A DNA stretch of 64,000 bases from Eledone cirrhosa (Eukaryota): assembly GCA_964016885.1 (NCBI GenBank), contig OZ024740.1, forward strand, positions 377,766,001-377,830,000, written 5' to 3'. The position numbers were made by a program, and so were the translations under genes. The notes beneath the pieces are model-generated. The model did no database searches. It saw only the letters and a list, made by a program, of their open reading frames with translations, and was not told the origin of the DNA. This document shows positions 11,860 to 21,747 of this stretch, one piece after another (within the stretch, counting starts at the first letter, position 1; every line of letters starts with the position of its first letter).

Positions 11860-12890
11860 CATACATACATACATACATAGACCTACACATAAAGATCGCC
11901 ATCCATTCATCAATACATACATGCATGCACACACACGCACACACACGCACACGCACACACACACACGCACACACACATATATATATATAACAAAGAAAGT
12001 GTGGTAAGAAACCAAGTGGACCATATATATATATATATATATATATATATATATATATATATATATATATACGGGGTAACAGATTATTGTTATAGGTAGT
12101 CCACTTAAGTGTAGTCCAGTTATGGTACTCCGAGTAGTGGATGATATCAACGCTTGGCTAAGTTTGACTCAACAAGGCGTTTCCATAGTGATGCTGCGAG
12201 TACGCGGTAATTTCTATGTTGTAAACACTTGCAGTAATGATAAATCAGGAAAGAAGAGTGACACGGTTTGCTATACAAAAAAGGTTTTTAATCTCATTGC
12301 TGACAATTGTTTCTCTGAACTGGTAGGTCTAGAGATCGCTACCCGCTTGTTTTCACGTCATTCGATCACCAATACATAGTTGTAACCAGTCAATTCATCG
12401 GAGCTTGTGAGAATGAAAGGAATATACAGGCATGGCTACTATATATAGTAGTAATGGCATTCAATCAGAACAATAACAACAATACTAACAATGCTAGCAA
12501 TAAATTATTTGAAATAATCACAACATCAATCAAGGTGGGAAATATAGTATATCTACGATTTTAGCGTGTAAAACTAGCTGACATGAAGCAGATGTATAAA
12601 ATTGACATGTAAAAGCTGTCATGGGGTGTATTATATACAGTGTAAAGATAAGCCGGTAGCTTTAAACAATGTAGGTCTGGTGGCCGTAAGAATCATTTAT
12701 TATCTGACAGATGAAAAATTTATCACTGTAGTGAGGATAGTAATATTTGTGGTGTTAGGTTCAATATTTATGTGGTCTATATTAGATGAAAGGGTTGTCT
12801 AGCTTTCTCATCATCAATAACATACATGTACAAGACAACATTAACAGAGTAGCAATATAATAGGCAAGTTAATACAGAGGTTAAGGAGGC

Positions 12891-13779
12891 AATATATATA
12901 TATATGTGTGTGTATATATATGTATATATATGTATACATATATATATATATATATATGTGTGTATATATATGTATATATATGTATACATATATATATATA
13001 TATATGTGTATATATATGTATATATATGTATACATATATATATATATGTATATATATATATATGTATATATATGTATATATATATATGTATATATATATA
13101 TATATATATATATATATATATATATATATATATATATATATATATATATGAATATATATATATATATGTATATATATGTATATATGTATATATATATATA
13201 TATATGTATATATATGTATATGTATATATATATATGTATATATATGTATATATATATATATATATATATATATATATATATATATATATATATATATATA
13301 TATATATGTATATATATGTATATATATATGTATATATATGTATATATGTATATATATATACATATGTATATATATGTATATATATATATATATATATATA
13401 TATATATATTTAGATATATATGTATATATATATGTATATATATGTATATATATGTATATATATATGTATATATATGTATATATATGTATATATATATGTA
13501 TATATATATGCATATATAAGTATATATATATGTATATATATGTATATATATATGTATATATATGTATATATATATATATATATATATATGTATATATATG
13601 TATATATATGTATATATATGTATATATGTATGTATATATATACATATATATATATATATGTATGTATATATATATATATGTATGTATATATATACATATA
13701 TATATATATATGTATGTATATATATACATATATATATATATATATGTATATATATACATATATATATATATATATATAT
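12891..13779. repeat. ~890-bp imperfect (TA)n/(TATG) microsatellite
   Basis: Directly visible; other long (TA)n tracts at 4005-4087, 15549-15885, 16449-16692, 17302-17552, 23891-24028; (TG)n at 657-734. Confidence 0.98.
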
Positions 13780-13809
13780 GGCATCTCGAATTAGTACCAT
13801 TGAACCACA

Positions 13810-17306: not shown

Positions 17307-17841
17307 ATATATACATATATACATATATATATATATATATATATATATATATATACATATATATATATACACATATATACATATATATATATATATATAT
17401 ATACATATATATATATACACATATATATATATATATATATATATATATATATATATATATATATATATATATATATATATATACACACACACATATATAT
17501 ATATATATATATATATATATATATATATATATATATATATATATATATATATAAAGAGAAAACATGCTGACTACAATTATAACAGGAAGAAGGTAATGTT
17601 CTGCTGTAGTAGTATTTTGAAATGTTCTTGGATTTAGGTTCATTTGTTGAGAGTCAAGGGTGAGGAAGTTGTGTTGACAGCAGCTGAGAAGGGATATATT
17701 TATGGGTTGATAAGGTACTTACAGACATTACTGTGGTATAGAATTAAGAAGGCTAGAATGTACTTAATGATTATATTTCTGTGGTGGTTCGTGCAGTATA
17801 GTGGGTATCCTAAGTTGAAAGCTAAGTTACGTCGGTTCGAT

Positions 17842-20205
17842 TCACAGCGGCTTAAATCTTGTTAATTTAGTGGCCATCACGTGTCTGCAGAAGATTGATC
17901 TTTCTAACTTGTTGTTGAGTAGCCTTTTTACATTTCTAAGGATATATAGTAATTCTAGATCACAGAACCTACAGTGGGACATACCGGTACTGTAGGTCTT
18001 TGCGGCCGACAACCTCGACCAGTTGATATTGTAGTTGGTGTTATTGTCCTTAAGTTCCCAGATTTTTTTGGCGAGGGTTGTAGAACCCATAAGTGCACGG
18101 TTTTTCATCGAGTGTCTGTGCACATACCATTTTTTTAAAAGTACCCTCGGTGGATCCAATATAATGCCAAGTGGAGTTGTCTGAGTTGACCGTACACATG
18201 TACACTAGGCTCGAATCAAGGCATCTATTCGCCAATGGGCACCTATCCGGTAGGTGACAGTTACAGTTTGAGGTGTTATTTCGTGCAGCTTCCACATTGC
18301 TGTTTTGTACACTGCTATAAGTGGGTTGTGATTTATGCCCGTTGGGGTTTTGCTGCTGCGTGCTTGCATGCGCTTGCGGTTGTGATACTGTGATGTGTTT
18401 GTGTTTATAATTTGGTGCATAGAGGTATTTCTGTGGTTGATCTTACGTATGTGCGATTCTATATGTGCTGCCGTAGAGTATGAGAGTTTTATAGTTTTTC
18501 TATTGAGTATTTTATAATATCTGTGTGAAATAGGGAAGTGTTTATCTATTAGTTTAAAGAATGTAGAAGGCAGTCTAGTTTTTACAGAGGAGTTGAAGAT
18601 TGGATTGAACCATAGGTATTTTCTTTCTCTGATTCTTCTATTGTTTCTAGGGTTTACATTATTGGTGTTTGGACCACTTACTCTATGTGGTACGTGCCTA
18701 ACTCTATGTCTAGTCCTGTTACCTCTATTTTTGTGTGAGCGGTTGGTGTAATTGCTAGTAGGTTTGTTTAAGTTGTCTTTATTCGCTATAAACTGCAGTT
18801 TATCTTTATGTCCGGCCCTATGTAATGCTGCGTTATAATAGTTAGCATGTTCATTAAAAATTTCTAGGTTTGAGGATAAGCGGGATATTCTAAGGGATAT
18901 ACTACGTGCTATGGATCTGATTATGGATTTGGGGTGGTTTGAGTTGTAACTAATGTAGGCCAGATTCTCATTATTTTTGTGGAAAGGTTCTATTAATCCA
19001 GTATTTAGATTTAGAGTCACATCTAGAAAGTTTACCTTTTTATGGTTCAGTTCGTAGGTAATACTTAGGCCTAGTTTTTTTAAGAATGTTCTAATGTTTT
19101 TTCTTAATCTTTCCATGCTCTGGTTGTTTAAGTTCCTAGCTATAAGTAGCGTGTCGTCCCTATAAATTCCTCCTTGGAGGTTACTGAATTCCTTATGTAG
19201 GTTGTGTGCTATAAATAGCCCCACGACGTCAGTGATTTGCGCAGAGTCATTTGATCCCATTGTGATATCGAAGCTGTTTATCCTATCTTTTCTTACCCAG
19301 TAGCTATTTTCAAATTTTATGATAGTCCTTCTAGCCGCTATTATTATTTCAATTTCCTCAGGGGTAAGATCGGAGTTATTTTGGCAAATATAAGCGCTTT
19401 ATCTAGGGTGGCTGGCGATATGGATGCATAGTAATCGTTTATATCGAATTGTATGAAGTTACATGTCTCCCTATTTCGTATTTTATTGAACCATTCAATC
19501 GCCTCGTTAGTGTTACCCCATAAATTGATTTCTAGTTTACCCTTTATTTGTGCGATTACCCTATCTAGAATGTTCTTGCTAATTTTACCTATATCTGATT
19601 TCGATGGGCATATTAATCTGATAGTAGGGTTTGTTTCAAAATTATTTTTGTGATCCTTCAGGTTAAATGTGGGGTTGCATGGCGTTAGAGGCTCGGTCCT
19701 ATCAGGTATTCCGAGTTTATTTACTATCCTAAGGCCCTCCACGTTAATGCTGGTGAGTGTGAATTCGTTTGTTTTTTTGTATTTTTTGTGTAGTTCACGC
19801 TGAATTAAAATTATTGTATGTGTTAAGGTCCATAGAGTATACGTTTGATGTTTTGTCTGCCTTTACTATGATACCGTTAGTGTCTTTTAGTTTTTTTAGT
19901 AGTGTATTGATGTCATTTTGTAATTTGTTGTGGTGTGTTCTTTTTTTGAATTTAGTTCGACTTATCATATTCATAAGGTCCAGCTCGAAGGCATCGAGTG
20001 TGGGGTTGTTTTGAGGGTTTTTGCAGGATTTGAATCCGTAATTCTCCTTAGAAAATTCTCTTGCTGGTCCTTTGTCGAAGTGGTAAGCCTTCCATCGGAC
20101 CCTACGGATGAAATCATTAGTCTGTTGTATCATGCCCAGTGTATAGTCCTTATTTGTAGGTATAGGTATGTTTTTCAGTGACATTCCTATACGGTGCTTT
20201 TCCAT
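17842..20205 (-). pseudogene. PLE-A RT + GIY-YIG ORF (frameshifted)
   Basis: SLKNIP, VKADKTSN, PTIRLICP, FIQFDINDYYASI, MGSNDSAQ, GIYRDD, VNFLDV, linker CNCHLPDRCPLANRC, LVYMC...HYIGST, CRFCDLE...CRH. Confidence 0.92.
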
Positions 20206-21747
20206 GTTGTTGCCGTGCGTTAATGGTGTTGCTCAACCAGGTGGGAGCTAAGTATACGGGGTAACAGATTATTGTTATAGGTAGTCCACTTAAGTGTAGT
20301 CCACTTAAGTGTAGTCCAGTTCAACAAGGCGTTTCCATAGTGATGCTGCGAGTATGCGGTAATTTCTATGTTGTAAACACTTGGAGTAATGATAAATCAG
20401 GAAAGAAGAGTGACACGGTTTGCTATACAAAAAGTGTTTTTAATCTCATTGCCTTCTTAATTCTATACCACAGTAATGTCTGTAAGTACCTTATCAACCC
20501 ATAAATATATCCCTTCTCAGCTGCTGTCAACACAAATTCCTCACCCTTGACTCTCAACAAATGAACCTAGATCCAAGAACATTTCAAAATACTACTACAG
20601 CAGAACATTACCTTCCTCCTGTTATAATTGTAGTCAGCATGTTTTCTCTTTATATATACACATATATATATATATTGCCTCCTTAACCTCTGTATTAACT
20701 TGCCTATTATATTGCTACTCTGTTAATGTTGTCTTATACATGTATGTTATTGATGATGAGAAAGCTAGACAACCCTTTCATCTAATATAGACCACATAAA
20801 TATTGAACCTAACACCACAAATATTACTATCCTCACTACAGTGATAAATTTGTCATCTGTCAGATAATAAATTATTCTTACGGCCACCAGACCTACATTG
20901 TTTAAAGCCACCGGCTTATCTTTACACTATATATAATACACCCCATGACAGCTTTTACATGTCAATTTTATACATCTGCTTCATGTCAGCTAGTTTTACA
21001 CGCTAAAATCGTAGATATACTATATTTCTCACCTAGATTGATGTTGTGATTATTTCAAATAATTTATTGCTAGCATTGTTAGTATTGTTGTTATTGTTCT
21101 GATTGAATGCCATTACTACTATATATAGTAGCCATGCCTGTATATTCCTTTCATTCTCACAAGCTCCGATGAATTGACTGATTATAACTTTGTATTGGTG
21201 ATCGAATGACGTGAAAACAAGCGGGTAGCGATCTCTAGACCTACCAGTTCAGAGAAACAATTGTCAGCAATGAGATTAAAAACATTTTTTGTATAGCAAA
21301 CCGTGTCACTCTTCTTTCCTGATTTATATATATATATAAATTTCGCTCTACATGGCTGAATACAATAAATGTAATCTGGTCGTAACTATGCTGGAAAGGG
21401 ACGTAACTATGCTGGAAAGCATGGCGTCCGACCCTCTACCGATAGACTAAAATAATATACATTATAAGCAAATGTTGAGATAATAAACTTTCTTAACACA
21501 AGAGATGTTCAAGTATCTATATGGTATGTGTGTGTGTGTTGAGTTGGAGTGGTTATGTATGTGTGCATATATTTTTTTTTTTTTTAATTTCGCTCTACAT
21601 GGCTGAATACAATAAATGTAATCTGAGTTTTTCGAATATTAATAATAACATTCGATTCGTTTGCAATTATGCAAACAACCTCATTTTTAACGCCATGTCA
21701 GTAGAATGAACCCTTCATTCTTGCTCTTATGTTGGCATGTAAACAGA

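Follow-up and report, generated by a model that had tools for sequence, protein, structure and literature searches.

Structure of the locus

The window analysed here is a stretch of 64,000 nt from Eledone cirrhosa (contig OZ024740.1, positions 377,766,001 to 377,830,000, forward strand). Between 12 and 21.4 kb it contains a Penelope-like element (PLE), here called PLE-A, which lies on the minus strand next to an inverted piece of itself. The 3′ untranslated region (UTR) of the main copy is split at an internal TA tract in which a second PLE (PLE-B) and two non-coding units with hammerhead motifs (units 1 and 2) are found; the first-pass annotation had read this as a microsatellite of the element's own UTR acting as a landing pad for nested insertions. 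Two ends of PLE-A recur throughout: site 1 is its 3′ end at 12072 and site 2 a second fixed internal end at 12240. The parts of the locus are:

12023..12071: left target tract, (TA)24, flush with the PLE-A 3′ end; the same junction occurs in 71/73 site-1 ends of other copies
12072..12891, minus strand: right half of the PLE-A 3′ UTR/pseudo-long terminal repeat (pLTR), with a predicted type I hammerhead, site 2 (12240) and a 168-nt tail to site 1 (12072)
~12299-12404, minus strand: predicted PLE-A hammerhead, core CCGATGA, predicted cut 12302/12301
12892..13779: T1, an expanded tract of 888 nt whose interruptions are G-type (63 G, 9 C)
13780..13817, plus strand: second copy of the initial ~38 nt of unit 1, probably belonging to a target-site duplication of PLE-B
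13818..15547, plus strand: PLE-B, a 5′-truncated Hydra-type PLE with the end of the reverse transcriptase (RT) region, CxCX5C linker, GIY-YIG (open reading frame (ORF) 14145-14744) and 3′ UTR
15241-15352, plus strand: PLE-B hammerhead, with site 2 of PLE-B at 15408
15548..15885: tract T2, 338 nt, C-type interruptions
15886..16448, plus strand: unit 1, a putative hammerhead retrozyme without coding sequence, made up of a 468-nt monomer and a repeat of ~100 nt; hammerhead ~16185-16265
16449..16692: tract T3, 244 nt, C-type interruptions
16693..17302, plus strand: unit 2, likewise a putative hammerhead retrozyme without coding sequence, made up of a 524-nt monomer and a repeat of ~85-105 nt; hammerhead ~17106-17186
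17303..17552: tract T4, ~250 nt, C-type interruptions
17553..17841, minus strand: left part of the PLE-A 3′ UTR
17842..20232, minus strand: PLE-A RT and C-terminal GIY-YIG ORF, split over several frames, with RWK, DKT, YRDD, CxCX5C, CxxC and CxH motifs
20253..20452, minus strand: partial pLTR located upstream, in which ~48 nt are deleted and 15 nt duplicated in tandem; the predicted hammerhead cut is 1 nt away from its 5′ end
20451..21327, plus strand: inverted 5′-truncated PLE-A piece ending at fixed site 2; its tract of 24 nt (20652-20675) is uninterrupted
21326..21339: right target TA tract

As the first-pass annotation had noted, the inverted piece joins both UTR halves through a short TA-rich repeat only. 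In a self-BLAST of the window, 20451-20675 is the inverted match of 17753-17529 (97.8%) and 20651-21327 that of 12916-12240 (98.1%), and the joint consists of 24 nt (20652-20675) of alternating TA with a single CA interruption. In the main copy the same halves lie 4.66 kb apart, split by expanded (TA)n, PLE-B and the two hammerhead units. Inserted elements account for 2.94 kb of this gap (PLE-B with the 38-nt duplication 1768 nt, unit 1 563 nt, unit 2 610 nt) and microsatellite for 1.72 kb (TA-rich tracts of 888, 338, 244 and 251 nt, 1721 nt in all). T1 starts with the same 14 nt plus GTG as the tract of the inverted piece and continues with three ~44-nt higher-order repeats.

The two halves belong to one copy

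The two UTR halves fall in one subfamily and not in different ones. Across the family the allele at left position 804 is linked to that at right position 533 (allele combinations in 27, 5, 1 and 54 copies; p=2e-16), left 804A occurring with right 533G in 27/32 copies, and the window copy carries A/G. The main and inverted pieces differ at 14/853 sites (1.6%), and at 3/23 segregating sites (354, 510 and 515) compared with 40% for random pairs (p=0.005). Both have 305T, which is rare (4/67 other rows), as well as a C interruption 14 nt from the tract end that is found at that distance in one other of 66 joints with printed ends. Given the three segregating differences, the inverted piece is either a sister unit or one that was converted later; it shows the ancestral state. 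The earlier proposal that it records the state before insertion thus holds in its essence, the short tract, and not as an exact snapshot.

The tracts of the main copy, 244-888 nt long, are hard to assemble, the arrangement of the locus is known from the assembled sequence alone, and the main and inverted pieces do differ at the three sites named above. Misassembly or ectopic recombination, through which different PLE-A copies or several loci would have become joined via long TA tracts, nevertheless appears quite improbable. The subfamily haplotypes of the halves agree. Random copies are more distant from the right half than the inverted piece is (p=0.005), and the inverted piece adjoins the left half. 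In addition, the rare 305T and the C interruption of the tract are common to both pieces, the 38-nt duplication links PLE-B to unit 1 across T2, and comparable interruptions of 3.8-4.9 kb with both halves present occur at four other loci (L061, L067, L241, L242). This alternative is disfavoured by the evidence of the sequence alone.

Identity of the elements

By its motifs PLE-A is assigned to the TA-targeting Penelope-like retrotransposons with Hydra-clade features. The ORF translations give an RT followed by a C-terminal GIY-YIG endonuclease, with RWK in RRVRWKAY, DKG changed to DKT in VKADKTSN, a CNCHLPDRC linker (CxCX5C), CRFC (CxxC) and CRH (CxH). In PLE-B the end of the RT region precedes GIY-YIG, and the corresponding motifs are CNCHLPERC, CRLC (CxxC) and CNH (CxH). 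Both elements lack CCHH, having a single Cys between the GIY and YIG positions. Pfam returned no RT or endonuclease match for the PLE-A ORF pieces, the YRDD and YIG motifs being recognised by eye; the PLE-B GIY-YIG reached E=1.8e-4 with 22.1 bits against a cut-off of 22.6. The PLE-A ORF is ~2.4 kb long and the repeat unit ~3.5 kb, insertions excluded.

These motifs are those described for the Hydra clade, whose members insert into (TA)n and among which there is a family from an octopus, Hydra-1_Obim of Octopus bimaculoides (Craig et al. 2021, PMC8557442; here and below, comparisons refer to excerpts of the papers cited). PLE-A and PLE-B share with that clade the C-terminal GIY-YIG, the CxCX5C linker, CxxC/CxH, the lack of CCHH and the (TA)n targets; PLE-A also has its RWK and DKT, a region that the PLE-B copy here does not include. 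The partial tandem and inverted 5′ piece of PLE-A likewise resemble Hydra-clade elements, among which Penelope-13_HM has an inverted 5′ copy, and the hammerhead-like cores of the window, that of PLE-A being a predicted one, share the layout of the Hydra type I hammerheads in the supplementary table of that paper (PMC8557442). PLE-A may exceed the clade in the length of its unit (~3.5 kb compared with 'generally <3 kb' and listed consensuses of up to 3045 bp) and differs in its tail of 168 nt instead of 30-40 bp and in its CCGATGA core (99/127 rows), and the excerpts of PMC8557442 make no mention of an internal UTR TA tract for the clade.

Hammerhead-like cores are present in all four elements and kept in most family copies. 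In PLE-A the core reads CTGATGA in a further 11/127 rows; it is intact in 27/29 rows of PLE-B, 15/21 of unit 1 and 26/29 of unit 2. The PLE-B hammerhead is a canonical type I motif and alone passed the strict descriptor, which gave 0 hits in 30 shuffles and missed the other three of the four motifs. Stem II of the predicted PLE-A hammerhead folds, a 3-bp stem I and stem III being assigned by eye, and constrained folding yielded all three helices for unit 1 and part of them for unit 2. Rfam reported no hammerhead and matched only microRNA models to TA repeats.

Units 1 and 2 have no non-repeat ORF of >=80 aa in the ORF list and form tandem arrays elsewhere in the genome, with periods of 457-468 and 524 nt. 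They fit non-LTR (long terminal repeat) retrozymes, self-cleavage and circular RNA being predictions only. In common with the animal non-LTR retrozymes they are tandem repeats that code for no protein and have a single type I hammerhead in each monomer (Cervera and de la Pena 2020, PMC7229834; Li et al. 2026, 10.64898/2026.07.22.740005). However, their monomers exceed the 150-450 bp given in these sources, and they differ from the retrozymes described there in that their ends are fixed as in PLEs and inverted pieces of them occur in (TA)n. As a separate observation, three near-identical unit-1 insertions lie ~20 kb apart at L118-L120 (G000:C4:294.00-294.04 Mb), pointing to a segmental or tandem duplication.

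Fixed ends on TA repeats

In PLE-A, PLE-B and both units the ends are fixed, abut (TA)n directly and carry a short match to TATA/ATAT. Among 156 distinct PLE-A ends, 73 are at site 1 and 58 at site 2, of which 71 and 48, respectively, passed a strict TA test; both ends that failed at site 1 are tandem junctions, and at site 2 the majority of those that failed nonetheless begin with a short AT run. The PLE-B 3′ end lies on TA at 30/30 loci, and the 3′ ends of units 1 and 2 do so at the last repeat of each array seen. Second fixed ends were found at query positions 652 (PLE-A), 1599 (PLE-B), 462 (unit 1) and 199 (unit 2), and in all four families both fixed sites have a 3-6 nt TATA/ATAT-like match to the target. 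Since raw reads with TA following site 2 of PLE-B are present in two runs (114 and 100; family-level short data), these junctions are not a product of the assembly. The four runs compared with PLE-B do not bear on the locus of the window itself; no record was listed with the junction between unit 1 and PLE-B, a negative that carries no weight.

In vitro, Poseidon PAc from the anole starts at two fixed RNA sites which lack homology to the DNA that is cut (Frangieh et al. 2024, PMC11167929). As far as the excerpts of that paper go, the elements of the window resemble it in having two fixed internal start sites that define a tail and AT-rich targets, and, in the mechanism proposed below, in that both strands would be cut and extended. 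In contrast, both sites match the target in all four families of the window, which provides a testable difference from the sole PLE studied in vitro.

The main copy spans 20452 to site 1 (12072) and the inverted piece 20451 to site 2 (21327). As one piece ends at site 1 and the other at site 2, both on TA, they have the geometry of a single insertion event. The 5′ end of the main copy (20451-20452) lies 1 nt from a predicted cut of a CCGATGA-core hammerhead and overlaps the inverted piece by 2 nt (GC). It may mark the end of a ribozyme-cut RNA, a single case noticed post hoc; against this, L079 reads through the predicted cut site.

Two further ideas were abandoned. A general two-template model for inverted pieces found no support, as pairs within a locus differ at 14/161 segregating sites compared with a background of 40%. 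The addition by the RT of tracts with fixed C or G polarity was dropped, since C predominates in the 3′-end flanks of PLE-B (112:42) and G in those of unit 1 (19:70), and those of unit 2 are mixed. Among neighbours across TA tracts, PLE-B abuts unit 2 at L153 and the PLE-A 3′ flank at L069, and at L098 and L021 a single tract lies between two facing ends that belong to one family.

The UTR tract is a family trait and a landing site

The tract was surveyed in 100 of the 130 exact matches to a 23-nt left anchor, copies being chosen by the anchor only. Left out before counting were the remaining 30/130 anchors, the two units of the window (hence n=98) and two control events, L209 (end near site 2) and L062+ (locus edge). 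The tract belongs to the element, as previously claimed: 88/100 copies carry an uninterrupted simple repeat of 10-202 nt with a median of 66 (87 by the script cut-off, plus L230 with 20 nt). Its length varies 20-fold between copies, which would be expected if the tract were an accident that befell the window copy after insertion and not a trait of the element. However, at least 10 nt of TA occur at the same two anchors in every spanning copy examined, and tract variants follow the subfamilies defined by single-nucleotide polymorphisms. The survey and the subfamily analysis refute the accidental origin, to which we give next to no credence.

The tract also serves as a landing site in other copies. 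Including that of the window, 12/100 sampled copies are interrupted at this position, or 11/98 (~11%) of the others, at a tract that makes up <3% of the element; in 8/11 the right half resumes after 248-4888 nt. Interruptions amount to 1.7 events/kb in the tract and 0.21 in the rest of the UTR right half, which served as control (15 breaks in 69.9 kb), an ~8-fold difference (binomial p=3.7e-6). The inserts comprise a related Hydra-type PLE with 67% identity to PLE-A (L061 and L242), a relative of unit 2 (L244) and, labelled by eye, a foldback element (L172, L061) and multi-element stacks (L224, L062).

Additional insertions in the tract were seen beyond the 100-copy count, at L028 (1224-1525), L063 (3388-3701), L064 (3231-3539), L053 (minus strand) and L036; the L028 insert is short and has a compact hammerhead core, CTGATGA...GAAAC. 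The related Hydra-type PLE constitutes a third family of this kind, with long terminal inverted pieces (L061 2492-6295 and L242). At G000:C13:13546093-13546165 sequence from the adjacent right half recurs inside a PLE-A tract as a short inverted copy, as from hairpin repair, and at L039 (~2351) a foldback rearrangement with scrambled PLE-A UTR lies at the tract. The right half has two AT-rich hotspots of its own, at UTR positions 53-87 (L061, L065, L074, L183, L236, L245) and 437-460 (L047, L190, L214, L234, L241). At several of these loci the hotspot is filled by a repeat resembling short interspersed elements (SINEs) that is scattered through the window, e.g. at 11657-11841.

Order of insertions and proposed mechanism

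At 13780-13817 the initial ~38 nt of unit 1 occur a second time, PLE-B family sequence beginning at 13818; the start point of this duplicate was found at 0/29 other unit-1 loci, some of which overlap or are cut by the locus edge. The simplest reading of the sequence is that the duplicate is a target-site duplication of PLE-B. As this duplication would contain the start of unit 1, unit 1 should have been present before PLE-B. An A allele shared by the two copies of the 38 nt is weak evidence, being carried by 25/83 unit-1 repeats. Near-private changes (1.0%, 16/1668, in the main PLE-A copy, 0.9% in the inverted piece, 0.75% in PLE-B, 1.6%, 9/567, in unit 1 and 0.5% in unit 2) overlap within counting noise for all five pieces, the value of unit 1 agreeing least with this order. 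It is likely that the TA tract in the PLE-A 3′ UTR lengthened in the window copy and then took up unit 1, PLE-B and unit 2; unit 1 would have preceded PLE-B, and unit 2 would have no fixed place in this order.

We consider it probable that, overall, the locus is best explained by a TA-targeting PLE-A with a family-wide UTR tract, which lengthened here and then received three later insertions. In the proposed mechanism, the endonuclease would nick a TA tract on both strands, and reverse transcription would be primed from each nick at one of the two fixed internal sites, giving rise to a main and an inverted piece with a short tract in both. Slippage would then lengthen the tract, any TA-seeking or AT-preferring element could land in it, and each landing would leave TA on both sides for the next insertion.

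A number of observations weigh against this explanation. Unit 1 has more private changes than its host (1.6% vs 1.0%), a loose figure given that its nearest sampled relative is 5.7% away. All four tracts of the window (244-888 nt) exceed the longest of the 88 uninterrupted family tracts (202 nt), and the polarity of their interruptions, G-type in T1 to the left of the inserts (see above) and C-type in T2-T4 to the right of PLE-B (36 C, 4 G), is not accounted for. At the family level, 3/11 interrupted copies have no right half within 6.0-7.7 kb and may be truncations, and at least 3/11 inserts (L241, L224, L208) are, by eye, ATC/ATG-tailed sequences resembling long interspersed elements or SINEs and not TA specialists. 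The enrichment at the tract was calculated with the median of the present-day tracts (66 nt) and not with their size when the insertions took place, and 6/15 control events fall at UTR positions 53-87 and 5/15 at 437-460, hotspots which per base rival the tract.

No support for a self-feedback loop

The first-pass annotation went further and suggested that an element carrying its own target would create a feedback loop of nested insertion and microsatellite growth. In a true loop of this kind the target exported by PLE-A would grow and attract PLE-A along with other elements, and the enlarged product would be recopied, so that the family drives its own spread. One step is real. A degenerate tract, mostly of 55-80 nt and marked by TTTGTG, is present in 34/88 uninterrupted units with different flanks, and since the marked, enlarged tract occurs at different flanks it was copied onward. 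Moreover, 30/34 of the marked tracts are in a subfamily with a median of 70 nt, compared with 26 nt in the other (p=3.5e-7), and the longer-tract subfamily is the larger one (59 vs 34 of 100).

The remaining steps found no support. PLE-A is among 0/11 inserts, and patterns for self-insertion gave 0 hits in either orientation, compared with 66 for a control pattern (exact anchors with gaps of up to 80 or 120 nt, site-2 ends being covered only through the 100-copy sample). Copies with longer tracts are not interrupted more often (7/59 long-tract vs 4/34 short-tract), PLE-A lies within 1.5 kb of 0/87 other PLE-B, unit-1 and unit-2 loci, and no copy was seen that had been recopied with its cargo. 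The 54.6 kb beside the locus contain 21 TA tracts, i.e. ~385/Mb, or ~1.2 million per 3 Gb if typical, so that PLE-A tracts represent on the order of 0.01% of genomic TA targets; 130 anchored tracts and 172 anchored ends then yield an expectation of only ~0.02 self-insertions. More new tracts are likely to arise from the splitting of target tracts at each landing than from the seed in the UTR. Taken together, a self-amplifying loop is unsupported by the evidence from the window and the family and we think it improbable; the tract is a heritable target that passively serves all members of the element community and not part of a closed loop.

Relation to known systems

TA targeting, inverted 5′ pieces, retrozymes, seed-spreading elements and microsatellite-targeting elements are all already known, and the case in the window is a modest variant of known biology, real and well documented at the family level. 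The element mini-me, on which Wilder and Hollocher are said to have reported in 2001, reportedly spreads an internal short repeat that later expands. The proto-microsatellites of L1/Alu (PMC3812793) and the internal microsatellite of DINE-1 (PMC4067079) are examples of elements spreading microsatellite seeds; as in PLE-A, an internal short repeat spreads with the element and expands later. Unlike in these cases, judging from the excerpts, the repeat seeded by PLE-A is the very motif that is targeted by PLE-A itself and its relatives. Our literature search, from whose coverage most subscription journals are absent, yielded no report of a PLE with a microsatellite target of its own, and a repeat annotation of Octopus vulgaris (PMC13282606) lists Penelope-like elements, in the part at hand without an own-target tract.

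The locus provides a dated and ordered example of stacking by TA-targeting retroelements with a built-in picture of the state before, and it shows that an enlarged microsatellite can be heritable through retrotransposition. A bolder proposal, which we put forward tentatively and hold to be rather doubtful, is that Hydra-type PLEs and retrozymes prime both nicked strands through TATA pairing at two fixed RNA sites and jointly form a microsatellite-making community. The seed would have grown from ~12 to ~66 nt in PLE-A lineages and been passed on via RNA, landings would double the tracts, and stacks would exceed the family range. If this were true, these elements would be a main source of the TA content of the genome.

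Other repeats in the window

Beyond the inverted piece, a SINE-like sequence is flanked by a 40-nt exact direct repeat (21339-21378 and 21586-21625), possibly a long target-site duplication. Self-BLAST also detected long palindromic repeats at 25674-26727, 27312-27533 and 43677-43800.

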